The notes beneath the pieces are model-generated. The model was not told the origin of the DNA and searched no databases. It was given only the letters and a program-made list of their open reading frames with translations. Made by a program: the position numbers and the translations under genes. From a virus, in the IMG/VR virus record IMGVR_UViG_3300007623_000006, positions 32,001 through 96,000 of that record: a DNA stretch of 64,000 nucleotides; one strand, 5' to 3'. Shown piece after piece: positions 419 to 29,030 of the stretch (the stretch's first letter is position 1; each line of letters opens with the position of its first letter).

Positions 419-2398
419 ATGGCAATGTTAAGTCCAGGTGTAGAAGTAAAAGAAATTGACTTATCAATCAGAGTTCCAGAAGTATCAAAAGCAATCGCTT
501 GTTTTGGTGGTGTTTTCAACAAGGGACCTGTAGATGAGAAAATGTTAATGACAAATGTAGATGATTTTATCTCATTTTTTGGTGAGCCATCACATTCAAA
601 TTATAATGATTGGTTCCAAGTATACAACTTTTTACAGTATGCTAATAAAATATATGTAACAAGAGCGTTTAATGATGAGTGTGCAAATTCACACGGTTTC
701 GTAACAGTAAGAAGTGAGGAGTTACCAACAATTACATTAGGTACAAATGATAAAGTTTTTATTAAAAATCCAGATGATTTTGAACAAATGTATTTAAGTA
801 AGCCACCAGCTGATGTATTAAGTAGAAGACCGGCATTCAAAGACAAATCAAAATTATTATTTGTTGCTCAAACTTTTGGTGCGTGGGGAGATAATGTTTC
901 AGTAGGTATTGCTACTAAAACTGATTTTGTAAGAGGTGCTAAAGTTGGTGGATACACATTCTCTAACTTATTTGAATACCACCCTGGTACAGAGGTAGTA
1001 TACACAAATATTGAACCAGAATCAACTGTTGCTGAATTTACTGTAGAAATTACAGGTAACATTCCTGAGCAAGTAGGTGACCAAATTGATATGGAAATCA
1101 CAGATGCTGAAGGTGTTAAATCTTATATTACAGGTACAATTACTACTAAAGATGTAGCAATTAATGACCCAATTTTAGGAAACTCGGCACAAATGGTAAT
1201 TGATGTATCTACATCTAACTTAGAAGCAGTACCTGCAAGAATTACATTAATTCCTGAATCAATGGAAATTGGTGTTGTAATTTTAGAAAACGGTAAACCA
1301 GTAGAAACATATATTGTATCTATGGATGAAAACGCTAAAGATTATACAAACAAATCAACATATATTGAAGAAGTTATTAACAGAAAATCTCAATATGTAT
1401 ATGTAAAAGTTAACCAAAGTGCAACAGAGTACTTACCAAGTGGGTGTAATGACACTGATGGTTTATTAAAATTAAGAAACTATTTCCAACCAGCTACTGA
1501 TGATTTAGGTGCTGTTGTTGCTGATTGTTATGCAACATCTGCTGATAATGGTATTTTCTCTAATAAAGAAGAATTTGATGTAGACTTAGTTATTGCTAAT
1601 GAAAGAGCACAAGTTGCTGCTATAAGTTTAGCAAGAGACAGAGGTGACTGTATTGCATTCTTAGGTGCAAAAGAAGAAGATGTTGTATGTGCTAAATCTG
1701 CTATTGCAGTTAATAATTTAGTTGAATATGTAACAATGGGTGAATTAAATGTTGAATCATCATACGCGGCATTCTTTGGTAACTACAAATACCAATATGA
1801 CAAATGGAATGACACTTATAGATGGGTAAACTTAGCAGGTGATGTTGCTGGATTAAGAGCAGACACTAACACTAGAAGAGATGTATGGTGGGCGTCAGCA
1901 GGTATTGATAGAGGACAAATTAGAAACGCTATTAAATTAGCATTCAATCCTAACCAAGGTGAAAGAGATATCCTTTACAAAACTAAAATCAATCCAATCG
2001 TTTCATTCCCTGGTCAAGGAAATGCAATTGTATGGGGTCAAAAAACATTACAATCTAAACCATCAGCATTTGATAGAATTAATGTAAGAGGTTTATTTAA
2101 TACATTAGAAAGAGCAATTTCAAGAATGGCTAAGTACTATGTATTTGAGATTAATGATGAGTTCACAAGAAATAGATTTAAAGCAACTATTGAACCATTC
2201 TTAAGAAATGTTAAAGCAAATAGAGGTATTTATGACTTCTATGTTAGATGTGATGAAACTAACAATACACCATATGTTATTGATGCTAACCAATTCATTG
2301 CAGATATCGCAATTAAACCTGCTAGAACAGCAGAGTTCTTAACACTTAACTTTATCGCAGTTTCGACTGGTGTTGAGTTTAGTGAAATTTTCGCTTAA
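419..2398 (+). CDS. gp18: Tail sheath protein (T4 gp18-like)
   Basis: MLSPGVEVKEID N-terminus, WWASAGIDRG, LYKTKINPI, WGQKTLQSKPSAFDRINVRGLF, FIADIAIKP; true start at ATG 419 after AGGAG rather than the ORF-track start at 302. Confidence 0.95.
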   Translation: MAMLSPGVEVKEIDLSIRVPEVSKAIACFGGVFNKGPVDEKMLMTNVDDFISFFGEPSHSNYNDWFQVYNFLQYANKIYVTRAFNDECANSHGFVTVRSEELPTITLGTNDKVFIKNPDDFEQMYLSKPPADVLSRRPAFKDKSKLLFVAQTFGAWGDNVSVGIATKTDFVRGAKVGGYTFSNLFEYHPGTEVVYTNIEPESTVAEFTVEITGNIPEQVGDQIDMEITDAEGVKSYITGTITTKDVAINDPILGNSAQMVIDVSTSNLEAVPARITLIPESMEIGVVILENGKPVETYIVSMDENAKDYTNKSTYIEEVINRKSQYVYVKVNQSATEYLPSGCNDTDGLLKLRNYFQPATDDLGAVVADCYATSADNGIFSNKEEFDVDLVIANERAQVAAISLARDRGDCIAFLGAKEEDVVCAKSAIAVNNLVEYVTMGELNVESSYAAFFGNYKYQYDKWNDTYRWVNLAGDVAGLRADTNTRRDVWWASAGIDRGQIRNAIKLAFNPNQGERDILYKTKINPIVSFPGQGNAIVWGQKTLQSKPSAFDRINVRGLFNTLERAISRMAKYYVFEINDEFTRNRFKATIEPFLRNVKANRGIYDFYVRCDETNNTPYVIDANQFIADIAIKPARTAEFLTLNFIAVSTGVEFSEIFA

Positions 2399-24492: not shown

Positions 24493-25056
24493 ATGGACGC
24501 TATACCAGTATCACAAATTGATTTAAAAGGACTTGACATAGATGCTTATAGAACATCTGTTTCAGGTAACGCTTATATATCAGGTGGTGCTTTACTTGAC
24601 TTAACAACAGGTAGAGCATATGTAGTTAAAGAGCAGGTAGTAGATTTACCTAACTTAGGTTTAAACTACATATATTATGACATTTCACAAGAAAAATATG
24701 AAGTATCTGATATGTTATTAAAGAATCTTGGAAACAGAAAACTATTGTTTATTATTAATAAAAGAGAAAATGGTTCATTAGATTCTATAATCAACGCAAC
24801 TGATATTAAAAATAGAGACCTTACACTTCCTAATATTTCAGACCAAGTTTATTCAACTGATACAGAATATAAACTAACAATTGTTGGTGATACTGTAACT
24901 GTTAACAACCACGACATTAAGAGAGTTGAAGAGTTTTATATTCATGGAGTAGGGGTAGTTTTATCAAAGTCTATTTTAGCAGTTCAAGGAAAGCAAATTA
25001 TATTAGACGGTGACGAAATGGATGGTAAACTTTGTGATGTATCTTATTTTTGGTAA
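24493..25056 (+). CDS. Putative virion structural protein
   Basis: Late promoter, AGGAG SD, beta-rich; C-terminus resembles that of 25103. Confidence 0.6.
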   Translation: MDAIPVSQIDLKGLDIDAYRTSVSGNAYISGGALLDLTTGRAYVVKEQVVDLPNLGLNYIYYDISQEKYEVSDMLLKNLGNRKLLFIINKRENGSLDSIINATDIKNRDLTLPNISDQVYSTDTEYKLTIVGDTVTVNNHDIKRVEEFYIHGVGVVLSKSILAVQGKQIILDGDEMDGKLCDVSYFW

Positions 25057-25102
25057 TTAATAAATATAATAAACTTAATAAAAAATTATAGAGGAAAAAG
25101 AT

Positions 25103-25855
25103 ATGGCTATAGAAACACAACAAATATCAGCTGACAATGTCGTAGAAACCGACCTTAGGGTATTTGCACACCCTGACGACTTAGGTAAGTTAGATTTATT
25201 ACAAATCACTGCACCTACAGATATAGATTATTTACTAAACAAGGTAGATAGTATTCAAAACCCAATACAAGATATGGGAGAATTTGACCCGACAATTGAT
25301 GGTATGTTCCCTGAAGGTGCTATGTCAGGTTGGTTGTACAGAGTTGCAAATGATGGTGATATAGGTTCTATGTCTCTATCAGCAGGTGACACAATTTTCG
25401 CTATTGCAGATGTAGTAGATAGAACTGACCCTAGCCTATGGGTAAAAATTGATAATACAGAAGGTAACGATATCCTTAGAACTAATGATATTGATACTGA
25501 CCCAACAATGCTTAATGCAACAGATGAAACAATTGGTTCTGCTTTAGCTGTTAAGTCATATGTTGACACTATGGTTATGGACTTAAACACTACTTTAATG
25601 ACAGAAATTGAAGCAGCTGGACAGTCTAGTACATCTGCAATCAAAGTAACTGATTGGGTGGATATAGTTGAAGATGGAACAGACTCACTTATGGTGATGA
25701 TTGAGCCACCTGCAGGTATTGTAAGAATTTACATTGAAGCATGGGGAGATATAGTTGACGGATGGACAATTACACCAGGTATTCCAGAAGTTAGATTTAC
25801 TGATGATGTTGAGCACATTGGTAAAAGAGTAAAAATCACTTATCTAGTAAACTAA
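25103..25855 (+). CDS. Putative tail/baseplate structural protein
   Basis: GWLYRV..DG....GDTI...WVKIDNT motif of the kind seen in phage fibre proteins; very acidic. Confidence 0.6.
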   Translation: MAIETQQISADNVVETDLRVFAHPDDLGKLDLLQITAPTDIDYLLNKVDSIQNPIQDMGEFDPTIDGMFPEGAMSGWLYRVANDGDIGSMSLSAGDTIFAIADVVDRTDPSLWVKIDNTEGNDILRTNDIDTDPTMLNATDETIGSALAVKSYVDTMVMDLNTTLMTEIEAAGQSSTSAIKVTDWVDIVEDGTDSLMVMIEPPAGIVRIYIEAWGDIVDGWTITPGIPEVRFTDDVEHIGKRVKITYLVN

Positions 25856-25875
25856 TTAATTTTAGTTTACTGATA

Positions 25876-25946
25876 TAACCTTTACCCTACTTTATGTAGG
25901 AGATATTTTTAATTTACCCTCTTAATGAGGAGTCCTTAGAAGGTTA
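25876..25946 (+). promoter_or_regulatory. Structured leader with two TTTACC-hairpin-GAG repeats enclosed by TAACCTT/AAGGTTA
   Basis: TTTACCCTACTTTATGTAGGAG (25881-25902) and TTTACCCTCTTAATGAGGAG (25913-25932); the outer stem covers the SD. Confidence 0.55.
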
Positions 25947-25949
25947 ATA

Positions 25950-26132
25950 ATGGTATTAGTATACAATAAAAATGGAGAGACTACAGAACCATGTAGCAAC
26001 AAAATTGCTAGGCTACTGTTAAAAGAAGATAAAGCAACTGTAAAGTCTTACAGACCATTTACTATACAACTTAAATTCAACTTAGATGAATTGTATAAAA
26101 AATTTATTGAAGATAAAGCAGGTGACAAATAA
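25950..26132 (+). CDS. Stand-alone PLMP/RRXRR-domain protein (IscB N-terminal domain-like)
   Basis: VLVYNKNGETTEPCSNKIARLLLKEDKATVKSYRPFTIQLK matches the VxVxDxxGKPLMPCxxxxARxLLKxGKAxVxxxxPFTIQL pattern; no RuvC/HNH follows. Confidence 0.8.
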   Translation: MVLVYNKNGETTEPCSNKIARLLLKEDKATVKSYRPFTIQLKFNLDELYKKFIEDKAGDK

Positions 26133-26806
26133 TGGCACTATTATTCAATGAAATACAATCATCATACATTTTACTTAAAAATACCTTTAATAATGTTCTA
26201 AAGGACAGTAAAAATGCACAAGAAGCATTTGAAAGATTAGACTCATTACTTGTACCTGCTACACAAGAAAAAGATGGTTTATTTGCTGCAAGTGATAAAT
26301 TAAAACTTGACACATTACAAGACACTGTAGAAGATGGTGGTATTGGTCATATTTCACTTACAAGTGGGTACGGAACATACTCATTTGAGTCTAACACTAT
26401 AGAGGACACATATACAATACACCACAACCTAAATTCTTTCAATTTGACTGTGACAGTTATGTTTATGAATGATGAAGGTTATTGGGAAAATGCAGTATTC
26501 CCTATGAAATACCTAGACGAGAACACTATTTTTATAGAACTTATAGAACCAAGAGAAGTTATTGTACATATAAATGCAGTTGAGTATTTTTTCTCATTCT
26601 CATATGAAAATAATAATTCACAATTAGTACACGAAATAACTCACAATTTAAATTCGTTTAATTTACTGTATAACATTATGATTTATGACATTGAAGAAGC
26701 AGTTTGGAAAAACGACCTTGCTAAATTTGTTTATAAAGATGAAAATAACTGCATTTTAACTTTAACTGATGCTTCACCATGTAGAGTGAACTTTATTAGA
26801 CTTTAG
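26132..26806 (+). CDS. Tail-associated protein with two HNL-motif beta domains
   Basis: ATQEKDGLFAASDKLKLD fibre motif; two copies of I.HNLNSFNL...W.N. Confidence 0.65.
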   Translation: MALLFNEIQSSYILLKNTFNNVLKDSKNAQEAFERLDSLLVPATQEKDGLFAASDKLKLDTLQDTVEDGGIGHISLTSGYGTYSFESNTIEDTYTIHHNLNSFNLTVTVMFMNDEGYWENAVFPMKYLDENTIFIELIEPREVIVHINAVEYFFSFSYENNNSQLVHEITHNLNSFNLLYNIMIYDIEEAVWKNDLAKFVYKDENNCILTLTDASPCRVNFIRL

Positions 26807-26888
26807 AATTTCGTTTAAATAAATATATATGAAATTAAGAAGACTAAAATCTTTTTAATATGCATATTAAATAAAAACGGAGAAAAAA

Positions 26889-29030
26889 ATGGCAAATTTT
26901 ATTAAAGCACACGGATTATCTATCGCTAATGGTGGATATGTTGAGAATGCTATAATTGAAACATTAACTACTGCACCAGCATCATTAGAAGTTGGTAGAT
27001 TGTATTACGATTCAACTGCTTCAGAATTAAAGTATGTTAAAGCTGATGGTGGTGTTGCTACTGTTAAGACTTTCGCTACAAAAGAAGATGCTGATGCATT
27101 TAAAGCGTTATTAGATTCAACTGATGGAGCTGCAGAAGTTGGTGTTACTGGTGTTACTGGTGTTAATGGTGAGTTTAGTATTACTGACGGTGATGTTCAA
27201 GTTTCTGTAGATGCAATTGTTGCTGCTATTGATGCTGAAATTAAAGCAAGAAAAAATGCTATCACAACTGAAGCAAATGCTAGAACTGCAGCTGATACTG
27301 CAATTACAACTGCTTATGAAGCGGCTGATACTGCAATTACAACTGCTTATGAAGCGGCTGATACTGCAATTAATGCAACAATTACTGCATTAAAAGATGG
27401 TTCTGAATCAACAATCGCTGACTTAGATGGAGCTGATGCTGCACAAGTTGCAAGATTAGTTGCGTTAGAAGATTTAGTTGATGGTGATATGGGTGACATG
27501 ACAACATTAACTACAGACCATAAGGACACATTAGTTGGAGCAATTAACGAAGTTGATGCAAACGCTGATGCTACTGCTGCTGATTTAGCACAAGAAATCT
27601 CTGATAGAGAAACTGCTATTACTGATTTAACTACTTACACTGATACAAACTTTGTAAACAAAACTACTTCATCATTACAATCAATTGTTGCTGATGTTAA
27701 TATGGGTGGTTCTTTAACAGTTACTGGTGACTTAACAGTTAACGGTGGTAACTTTGTTACTGAAGCTGAAGTTGTTACTTTTGCTGACAATGTTTTAACA
27801 TTAAACTCTAATGTTACAACTGGTGCACCAACTGAAAACGCTGGTTTAGAAGTTTCAAGAGGTGATGAGGGTACATTATCTATCTTCACATTCAATGAGT
27901 TAAATGATTATGTTACTATTCCTGTATGGGATGCTACTGCAAATGAAGGTGCTGGTGCGTTTGTTCAAGACGAAATCGCTGGTAAAACATGGGCTGGTGC
28001 TGAATTCTTAAGAATTGAAGATGCTACTGCTGCATTAGGTGCTGATTTACAAGCTGAATTAGACCTTAGTCAAGCTAGTGCTGGATTAACTGTAGACGGT
28101 GAGTATGTTGTTGCAACATCTGCTAACTACATCGCTACTGCTACAACTTTACACAATGCTACAGTATTATTAGATACACAAGCTAAAACAACTGCTGACG
28201 CTTTAGCACAAGAAATTTCTGACAGAGAATCTGCTGTAACAGCTGAAGAAACTGCAAGAATTGCTGCTGATACTGCTGAAGAAACTGCAAGAATTGCAGG
28301 TGATGACGCTTTAGACGCAAGAGTTACTACAGTTGAAGAACAAGTAAATGGTAAAATTGGTGAATTATCTACATTAACTAATACTGATAATGACACTGGT
28401 TTAGTTGCTGAAAATATTGTTGATGCTATCAATGATGTTGATGCTGATTTAAGTGCTGAAGTTTCTAGAGCAACTGGTGCTGAAGCTGCTATTTCAGGTG
28501 TAATTACTGCATTAAAAGATGGTTCAACTTCTACAATTAAAAATTTAGATGATGCAATCGCTTTAAATACAACTAACTTAAACCAAGAAATTTCTGATAG
28601 ACAAGCTGCAATCACTGCTGAGCAAACTGCTAGAGAAAATGCTGATTCTGCAATCAACTCTACTATCACTGCATTAAAAGACGGTTCTACTTCAACTATT
28701 GCTGATTTAGATACTGCTATTGCTGATGAAGTAACTAGAGCAACTGGTGCTGAAGCGACTATCAATACTACAATTTCAACAATGAAAACTGATATTAATG
28801 CAATGTACTACACATTCACTGCAGATGTAGCTGGTTCTACATTCAATATTGCACATAACTTAAATTCTGAATTTGTTTCAGTACAAGTATGGGTATATGA
28901 TGATGCTACTACTAAATGGAAAAATGACATTGTTGCTATCGAAATCGTAGATAACGCAAACTTAAACATTTACTTAACTGAATCTAGAAAAGTTAAAGTA
29001 ATCGTTTCTAAAATCGCTAACTTAGCGTAA
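26889..29030 (+). CDS. Long coiled-coil fibre/whisker protein
   Basis: Ala/Thr-rich EtaRiaaD repeats, LTTDHKDTLVGAINEV, central GDLTVNG..DNVLTLN..AGLEVSRG module, C-terminal HNL domain. Confidence 0.8.
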   Translation: MANFIKAHGLSIANGGYVENAIIETLTTAPASLEVGRLYYDSTASELKYVKADGGVATVKTFATKEDADAFKALLDSTDGAAEVGVTGVTGVNGEFSITDGDVQVSVDAIVAAIDAEIKARKNAITTEANARTAADTAITTAYEAADTAITTAYEAADTAINATITALKDGSESTIADLDGADAAQVARLVALEDLVDGDMGDMTTLTTDHKDTLVGAINEVDANADATAADLAQEISDRETAITDLTTYTDTNFVNKTTSSLQSIVADVNMGGSLTVTGDLTVNGGNFVTEAEVVTFADNVLTLNSNVTTGAPTENAGLEVSRGDEGTLSIFTFNELNDYVTIPVWDATANEGAGAFVQDEIAGKTWAGAEFLRIEDATAALGADLQAELDLSQASAGLTVDGEYVVATSANYIATATTLHNATVLLDTQAKTTADALAQEISDRESAVTAEETARIAADTAEETARIAGDDALDARVTTVEEQVNGKIGELSTLTNTDNDTGLVAENIVDAINDVDADLSAEVSRATGAEAAISGVITALKDGSTSTIKNLDDAIALNTTNLNQEISDRQAAITAEQTARENADSAINSTITALKDGSTSTIADLDTAIADEVTRATGAEATINTTISTMKTDINAMYYTFTADVAGSTFNIAHNLNSEFVSVQVWVYDDATTKWKNDIVAIEIVDNANLNIYLTESRKVKVIVSKIANLA
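27291..27372 (+). repeat. 33-bp exact tandem repeat, about 2.5 copies (ADTAITTAYEA)
   Basis: GCTGATACTGCAATTACAACTGCTTATGAAGCG twice plus a partial copy. Confidence 0.9.

Follow-up and report, generated by a model that had tools for sequence, protein, structure and literature searches.

A stand-alone PLMP-domain protein in a phage genome, encoded behind leader hairpins that resemble the omegaRNA terminal hairpin

Why would a phage carry a gene for little more than the first domain of IscB, directly behind hairpins that recall the end of the RNA bound by that domain? The question is raised by a 64,000-nt stretch of DNA, here called the window, which comprises bases 32001-96000 of IMG/VR record IMGVR_UViG_3300007623_000006, a 111-kb phage genome with 29% G+C. 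IscB and IsrB are the ancestors of Cas9, and their PLMP domain, lost in Cas9, has a role that is still vague; structural work goes no further than to suggest that it may link the binding of omegaRNA with translation of the nuclease. A first-pass annotation, made from the letters of the window alone, described a 60-amino-acid (aa) open reading frame (ORF) that is essentially only a PLMP (RRXRR) domain, preceded by a duplicated hairpin and coupled to a fibre operon. It proposed that the phage may have domesticated the RNA-binding tip of an OMEGA system, together with its binding site, as a translational switch. The coordinates that it gave for the ORF, the TAATG overlap with the next gene, the hairpins and the arms of an outer stem are every one correct.

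The 60-aa protein and its relatives

The gene lies at 25950..26132 on the + strand, starts with ATG and encodes a stand-alone PLMP-domain protein, as judged by Pfam RRXRR, AlphaFold2 (AF2), Foldseek and family alignments. The expected RRXRR match was recovered at 35.8 bits against a cut-off of 25 (PF14239, E 9.3e-9), with residues 2-45 covering positions 1-44 of the 174-position profile, and a comparison with PHROG gave no match. The AF2 model, built on a 36-row alignment (mean pLDDT 83.7), predicts strands at residues 2-5, 29-34 and 37-41, a helix at 17-25 and a C-terminal helix at 47-57, the last being family-specific. When this model was compared with the PDB by Foldseek, the best 10 matches were all PLMP domains of IscB or IsrB (7UTN, 8CSZ, 9K30, 7XHT, 8DMB and others), at TMq 0.56-0.72 and a root-mean-square deviation (rmsd) of 1.1-2.8 Å over 44-48 alignment columns; nine of the ten had TMq >=0.66 and rmsd <=2.0 Å, and everything ranked lower was noise. 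The protein is 42% identical to OgeuIscB over 47 residues, and the family profile matches IscB chains at 1e-23. At the position of the PLMP motif it reads T-T-E-P, the P-L-M-P motif itself being absent. The ORF stops ahead of the RuvC-I motif (G-x-D-x-G), and the 111-kb record holds no RuvC, HNH or other IscB remnant, because only residues 1-45 match when full-length IscB is searched against the whole record and RRXRR matches it a single time. The earlier claim of a PLMP-only product without RuvC-I or HNH thus stands, and the model indicates that the 60-aa protein folds as an autonomous PLMP domain.

An exhaustive phmmer search with the 60-aa protein returned 66 relatives, many of which are broken IscB genes that read on into the RuvC-I motif or into frameshifted junk. 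A profile search found at least 16 clusters (90% identity) of stand-alone proteins, 59-76 aa long and encoded on contigs of up to 91 kb, and these 16 clusters have 15 invariant positions in common. The family retains the core P-C-S-N..A-R.L.K and P-F.I.L, and it departs from IscB in two derived traits that none of the IscB rows of the alignment shows. At the PLMP motif, variable residues stand in place of P-L-M and only the final P is kept (16/16 clusters), whereas all 30 IscB rows have P-[LIV]-[MI]-P or A-L-M-P. The IscB linker (..Y-T-Q..L-G-x-D) is exchanged for a helix of the form (N/D)-(L/I)-D-E-x-Y, after which the protein ends. A tree places the 16 clusters on one side of a single branch (SH-aLRT 95), adjoining the P-C-S subfamily of IscB, mostly from Bacillota; a single origin of the family is not contradicted by this tree, which rests on only 50 columns.

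The same gene order recurs in a second phage contig, L002, where a helicase is followed by proteins of 141, 187 and 249 aa, the PLMP protein and two fibre-like proteins. The two PLMP proteins are 45% identical and their synonymous divergence (dS) is saturated, and the non-synonymous divergence (dN) of 0.52 compares with 0.44 and 0.65 for neighbouring genes. The L002 PLMP gene overlaps the next start by 8 nt, ATGGCTAA. A frameshift fusion of the PLMP protein to the product of the next gene was considered and rejected as unlikely, because the frame offset of this overlap differs between the window and L002. Judged by these sequence comparisons, and in line with the first-pass annotation, the PLMP-only protein represents a conserved family under selection and not a random truncation.

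The family was sparse in the other searches. A tblastn search with the PLMP protein found only full-length IscB, in Clostridium and Clostridioides phages; other scans of viral sequences yielded nothing beyond the L002 contig and a single full IscB; and more distant DnaB relatives were without a PLMP gene. A match from the metagenome scan (L005) proved spurious, being an ABC-transporter locus. Full-length IscB genes do occur in phages, at 570-2205 of IMGVR_UViG_3300025864_000154 (L003) and in GenBank CP069348.1 and AP008983.1; the phages that carry them include Clostridium phage c-st and Clostridioides phage pCD1602_4, and one phage IscB is accompanied by a HEARO omegaRNA (121 bits). IscB elements therefore enter phages, where they are raw material for the domestication proposed below.

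Two further observations concern the PLMP domain outside this family. One protein of 191 aa (P0006), from a 13-kb ENA metagenome contig, consists entirely of PLMP domains, three in tandem (Pfam RRXRR in 3 stretches, 89 bits). By its domain content this is a second, independent PLMP-only architecture, a hint that PLMP can act alone, perhaps with tandem hairpins as its target. The metagenome-assembled genome 'Clostridiales bacterium Nc350_bin65' (L053-L090) holds about 20 IscB copies, many of which end at 91-144 aa or have P-S-A-I in place of P-F-T-I; this looks like a burst of IscB copies decaying into pseudogenes.

Leader hairpins and the omegaRNA terminal hairpin

Upstream of the 60-aa ORF, on the + strand, a pattern scan marked two hairpin elements. 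Element 1 (25877..25910) reads TTTAC-[CCTAC]-TTTAT-[GTAGG]-AG, with the stem arms in brackets, and continues into ATATTTTT; element 2 (25909..25940) reads TTTAC-[CCTC]-TTAAT-[GAGG]-AG. Written as repeat copies, they are TTTACC-CTAC-TTTAT-GTAG-GAG at 25881-25902 and TTTACC-CTC-TTAAT-GAG-GAG at 25913-25932, and the exact 8-mer TTTACCCT is common to both, 32 nt apart. Hairpin 1 lies 49 nt and hairpin 2 19 nt from the ATG, and hairpin 2 ends 9 nt ahead of the Shine-Dalgarno (SD) sequence.

For comparison we fetched 80 IscB loci whose N-termini resemble the phage protein. Their consensus, ...UUAC-C[stem]loop[stem]G-AGUAUUUAU, stands 21-54 nt ahead of the ATG. Within the nearest subfamily, the 50 nt that precede the start codon follow the form GUACGCA-yUAC-C[4 more pairs]-loop-[...]G-AGAGUAUUUAU-AAGGAG...AUG, and in a sister subfamily the form ...GGCGAUGGUACAyyUAAC-C[stem]...G-AGUAAyUAAA-[second hairpin]-GAAAGGAG-AUG. 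RNAalifold folds these loci into a 5-bp hairpin with compensatory changes in four of its five pairs. The Rfam HEARO model (RF02033) matches six of the IscB loci (L003, L016, L022, L029, L033, L079) with scores of 99-143 bits. The last letters of its consensus, '...cauUAC', hold the very UUAC that opens the TTACC-hairpin-GAG element. This element is therefore terminal hairpin 1 (TH1) of omegaRNA, directly 3' of HEARO, and the similarity that the first-pass annotation had put forward is real. The HEARO model leaves out both terminal hairpins and the SD, which PLMP contacts in solved structures. Since it ends at UUAC, Rfam scans cannot detect retained 3' fragments of omegaRNA, and the covariance-model check proposed earlier was bound to miss TH1: a scan of 25000-27000 at E up to 10 gave nothing relevant and no HEARO match, because TH1 lies just outside the model.

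The IscB consensus was condensed into a search pattern: ACC, whose last C opens a stem of 4 bp or more, then a loop of 3-8 nt and finally AG. Of 75 distinct IscB upstream regions, 25 contain this pattern, each of them a single time and at a distance of 21-54 nt from the ATG. The two strands of the window, 128 kb in all, contain it five times, with two of the five inside the 94-nt leader. The closest look-alike outside the leader, at 2310-2343 (+) inside the 3' end of ORF 302-2398, reads AAACC-TGCT-AGAAC-AGCA-GAGTT and has a chance-range score (11.7 bits, E 1.5) with the covariance model described next.

That model, R2, was trained on 24 IscB elements only (33 positions, 5 pairs) and run unfiltered against the window and L002, 152 kb counting both strands. 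Hairpin 1 of the L002 leader came out on top (21.8 bits, E 4.4e-4), followed by hairpin 1 of the window leader (16.8 bits, E 0.025); among the chance matches elsewhere the best reaches 13.5 bits. Copy 2 of the window, searched alone, scores 14.1 bits, above every chance match, and IscB hairpins that took no part in training score 16.6-29 bits. If ranks alone are considered, the two sequences would each have their top match in the PLMP leader by chance with a probability of about 0.0007 x 0.0035. The L002 match is the cleanest evidence for hairpin likeness. At one IscB locus (L061), three R2 matches at 549-578, 966-998 and 1452-1481 (18.8, 29.0 and 16.6 bits) lie no more than 1 kb upstream of one IscB gene, which suggests repeated omegaRNA 3' ends or tandem partial elements.

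The leaders of the window and L002 are otherwise barely alignable. Stem 1 is CCUAC/GUAGG in the window and CUCUC/GAGAG in L002, and three of the five pairs differ by double changes that preserve pairing. The second L002 hairpin keeps the UUUACC in front of it and fits the hairpin-1 model poorly (3.8 bits). Two tandem hairpins before the SD are common to both phages and are also the ancestral arrangement of the omegaRNA; of the two leaders compared, only that of the window has a genuine second copy of hairpin 1. The claimed duplication thus holds for the window, where both copies score, but not for L002. On these alignments and model scores, the leader hairpins resemble the omegaRNA terminal hairpin and are conserved in the second phage.

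A terminator scan flagged hairpin 1 as weakly terminator-like (5 bp, 3 GC), and in both phages a T-run starts 4-5 nt past the stem. A reading of TTTACC as a -35 promoter box was rejected as well, since the window offers no hexamer acceptable as a -10 element at the required distance of 16-18 nt downstream.

Gene neighbourhood

The large genes of the window are all on the + strand and have strong AGGAG-type ribosome-binding sites; AAGGTT-type SDs also recur among its genes. DNA of this phage is present in freshwater metagenomes, no RNA data set being among the sequencing runs listed for it, and contigs from three freshwater runs are identical in this region, with zero microdiversity. Megablast against phages gave no match, nor did tblastn with the neighbouring 187-aa protein. 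The gene order on the + strand runs from a DnaB-like helicase through unknown proteins of 148, 187 and 250 aa to the 94-nt gap that forms the leader (25856-25949), the 60-aa ORF and proteins of 224 and 713 aa.

The upstream 250-aa gene (25103..25855, +) has no family match and a syntenic L002 orthologue with 52% identity, and its stop lies 21 nt ahead of the first hairpin element. This stop codon is spanned by a perfect 10-nt inverted repeat with a 6-nt spacer, AGTAAACTAA / TTAGTTTACT, at 25846-25871. The repeat is AT-rich, stands just upstream of hairpin element 1 and folds as a separate hairpin when the -100..+6 stretch is folded.

Downstream, the stop and start codons overlap as TAATG (26130-26134, +), the TAA of the 60-aa ORF (26130-26132) sharing its last base with the next ATG (26132-26134). 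The 224-aa protein (26132..26806, +) matches phrog_16122 'virion structural protein' at E 1.5e-4 and contains two domains of about 55 aa that start with H-N-L-N-S and hold W-x-N-D; the Ala/Thr-rich repeat protein of 713 aa (26889..29030, +) ends in a third copy of this HNLNS domain (28850-29030). The domain is retained in the L002 orthologues and is probably a shared distal or receptor-side module. Fibre-type similarity of both proteins is weak, and their language-model neighbours are labelled tail fibre or Phage_fiber_rpt. 'Fibre-like' is a reasonable label for them on these similarities, but the 'fibre operon' of the first-pass annotation is not proven.

Candidate translational operator, rival explanations and known systems

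Structures bear out the premise that PLMP contacts omegaRNA, with binding of terminal hairpins and SD (PMC9581776, PMC9640706). In IsrB it binds the terminal hairpins, which stand in tandem, and also touches the SD, an arrangement that according to the authors could help to regulate IsrB expression (PMC9581776); recognition of the terminal hairpins by PLMP is mainly sequence-independent (PMC9640706). The phage kept only the two partners of this contact, and we therefore favour, at slightly below an even chance, a domesticated PLMP-hairpin pair that would autoregulate its own translation and that of the coupled fibre-like gene. A fragment of an IscB (OMEGA) element would have been domesticated, comprising the omegaRNA end (terminal hairpins and ribosome-binding site) and the first ~45 iscB codons, and the PLMP fragment would have gained a short new C-terminal helix. 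The 60-aa protein would bind the tandem ACC-hairpin-AG elements in its own mRNA leader, as PLMP does in IscB and IsrB ribonucleoproteins (RNPs). Because hairpin 2 ends 19 nt from the ATG, next to the SD, protein bound there would hinder 30S loading, giving negative feedback on its own translation and, via TAATG, on that of the 224-aa fibre-like gene. That the domain binds RNA in isolation, that the regulation is negative and that the downstream gene is coupled are all inferences. With a little less assurance again, we entertain the more general idea that PLMP is an autonomous hairpin-binding module, which phages cut from an IscB element together with its cognate terminal hairpin, the minimal pair (~60 aa and ~30 nt) serving as a translational operator-repressor that sets the dose of fibre-like proteins.

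Several points weigh against this domesticated pair. The leader comparison rests on two DNA leaders only, those of the window and L002. The training rows of R2 were picked by a pattern written after the window had been seen, so that the pattern and model tests are not fully independent. Another model, R1, which covers the final 65 nt of the leader in the nearest IscB subfamily, did not hit the window and scored L002 at no more than 6.5 bits; this negative says little, because R1 also failed on nearly all sister-subfamily IscB loci, hardly any locus outside its own subfamily being detected. The fold of the leader is unremarkable. An outer stem enclosing the hairpins appears in the minimum-energy fold of both phages, and its arms, TAACCTT at 25876..25882 and AAGGTTA at 25940..25946 (both +), are present as first described, the 3' arm containing the AAGG SD 6 nt before the ATG; but their pairing is at chance against shuffled 5' flanks (P 0.086 in the window, 0.25 in L002). 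Nor is the leader fold stabler than its shuffles (z -1.26 and -0.51, respectively), and the SD, with a pairing probability of 0.72, ranks 8th among 61 genes, which is not unusual for this phage. The earlier picture of an outer stem that covers the SD is accordingly not borne out. Hairpin 1 and its T-run could be a weak terminator. The PLM residues, which are lost in the phage family, also touch omegaRNA in OgeuIscB (PMC9640706), and the isolated domain may bind weakly, because PLMP in IscB acts inside a large RNP through mostly sequence-independent contacts.

Some of the same observations can be read differently. The protein may be retained for a task that does not involve its leader, such as that of a small adaptor binding other proteins or of an assembly factor for the fibre-like proteins nearby, with the hairpins merely inherited as a weak terminator or attenuator, an mRNA-stabilising 3' end or ribosome-binding-site context. 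We rate this, the main rival, as somewhat less likely than the domesticated pair, while granting that it accounts for a gene embedded among fibre-like genes that overlaps the next start in both phages, for the terminator-like hairpin 1 with its T-rich run in both and for the unremarkable structural statistics of the leader. PLMP moreover packs against RuvC and TI in IscB and has an extensive protein interface in IsrB (PMC9581776). A generic terminator, however, needs neither the omegaRNA-specific flanks (ACC...AG) nor the compensatory stem changes that hairpin 1 retains across saturated divergence, and stems of only 4-5 bp with a T-run 4-5 nt past the stem are poor for intrinsic termination. 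Against an adaptor stands the choice of what was lost: PLM, which touches RuvC in IscB, is gone from every stand-alone member, and the helix is not.

The loss of the RuvC-facing motif would also be expected of a decoy acting in trans, in which PLMP, the omegaRNA-hairpin binder of IscB, would occupy the terminal hairpins of omegaRNAs in the host, or those of the guides of CRISPR-associated IscB, and interfere with the assembly of these nucleases, its own leader being a leftover or a titration site. CRISPR-associated IscB systems exist (PMC12660989). We nonetheless regard the decoy as improbable: no IscB is known in the host, IscB is not an established anti-phage system, and early counter-defence genes do not typically sit, translationally coupled, in a fibre-like cluster. 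Least probable of all, and by our estimate hardly credible, is a functionless remnant of an inserted IscB in the course of decay, whose ORF would stay open only for the sake of coupled translation downstream. Many short RRXRR proteins in the databases are indeed broken IscB genes (P0008, P0031, P0041, P0085-P0088), and the ORF ends just ahead of the RuvC-I motif. Yet 16 diverged lineages retain the 15 invariant fold residues and a common new tail, the protein is alignable end to end with its L002 orthologue at saturated dS, a neutral frame of 60 codons would stay open with a probability of only ~0.007 at 29% GC (our estimate from composition), and coupling alone would not conserve an amino-acid sequence. 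A small chance is reserved for something not considered here.

If the domesticated pair is real, it would be the first case of an OMEGA fragment domesticated to act on RNA with no guide, and it would give direct natural support for the idea that PLMP autoregulates the translation of IscB and IsrB. A stand-alone PLMP family beside its IscB-bound hairpin isolates the function of the domain, and the suggestion is testable with the 60-aa protein and a 90-nt RNA. Should binding prove true, the two would form a very small orthogonal protein-hairpin pair and a possible tool. No description of stand-alone PLMP proteins was found in the searchable literature, which largely excludes subscription journals.

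The closest known system is PLMP of IscB and IsrB with the omegaRNA terminal hairpins in IS200/IS605 elements (PDB 7UTN, 7XHT, 8DMB), with which the phage locus has in common the fold, homology, the order hairpin(s)-SD-ATG and the UUAC-C...G-AG flanks. Unlike IscB and IsrB, the phage protein is without RuvC, bridge helix, HNH, WED and TI; its locus is without a HEARO/omegaRNA body or guide and sits at a fixed syntenic site, not in a mobile element; and its family has lost PLM and gained the C-terminal helix. PLMP is reported to be similar to IF3-N in structure and by remote HHpred (PMC9581776); IF3 was absent from the Foldseek matches of the 60-aa model, and no sequence similarity to it was detected. 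That the architecture can be reduced is also seen in IshB (~180 aa), another shortened IscB relative, which is without the split RuvC domain, keeps HNH and is described as an insertion-sequence OrfB (PMC11610941); the phage protein, by contrast, has no nuclease domain and is one third the size.

TldRs are nuclease-dead TnpB proteins domesticated as RNA-guided repressors (bioRxiv 10.1101/2023.11.30.569447). They resemble the phage pair in that an OMEGA-type transposon protein was recruited with its RNA partner for regulation, which for the phage pair is proposed. They differ in that TldR is a whole protein that acts on DNA with a guide RNA, whereas the phage pair consists of a 45-residue domain and one or two hairpins, has no guide and would target its own mRNA. 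Alongside TldR from TnpB, the phage pair would be a further case of the domestication of transposon parts by phages. Translational operator-repressor pairs with proven binding are familiar from phages, as in the MS2 and PP7 coat proteins with their hairpin, T4 RegA and gp32. The logic proposed here is alike (a small protein, a hairpin at the ribosome-binding site, a coupled gene), whereas the folds are unrelated and binding by phage PLMP is proposed by analogy only. The PLMP domain, the omegaRNA terminal hairpin and phage translational operators are thus each already known; what this locus adds is the stand-alone architecture, its conservation at a fixed site in phages, the absence of the motif that faces RuvC and a cognate hairpin that has been kept.

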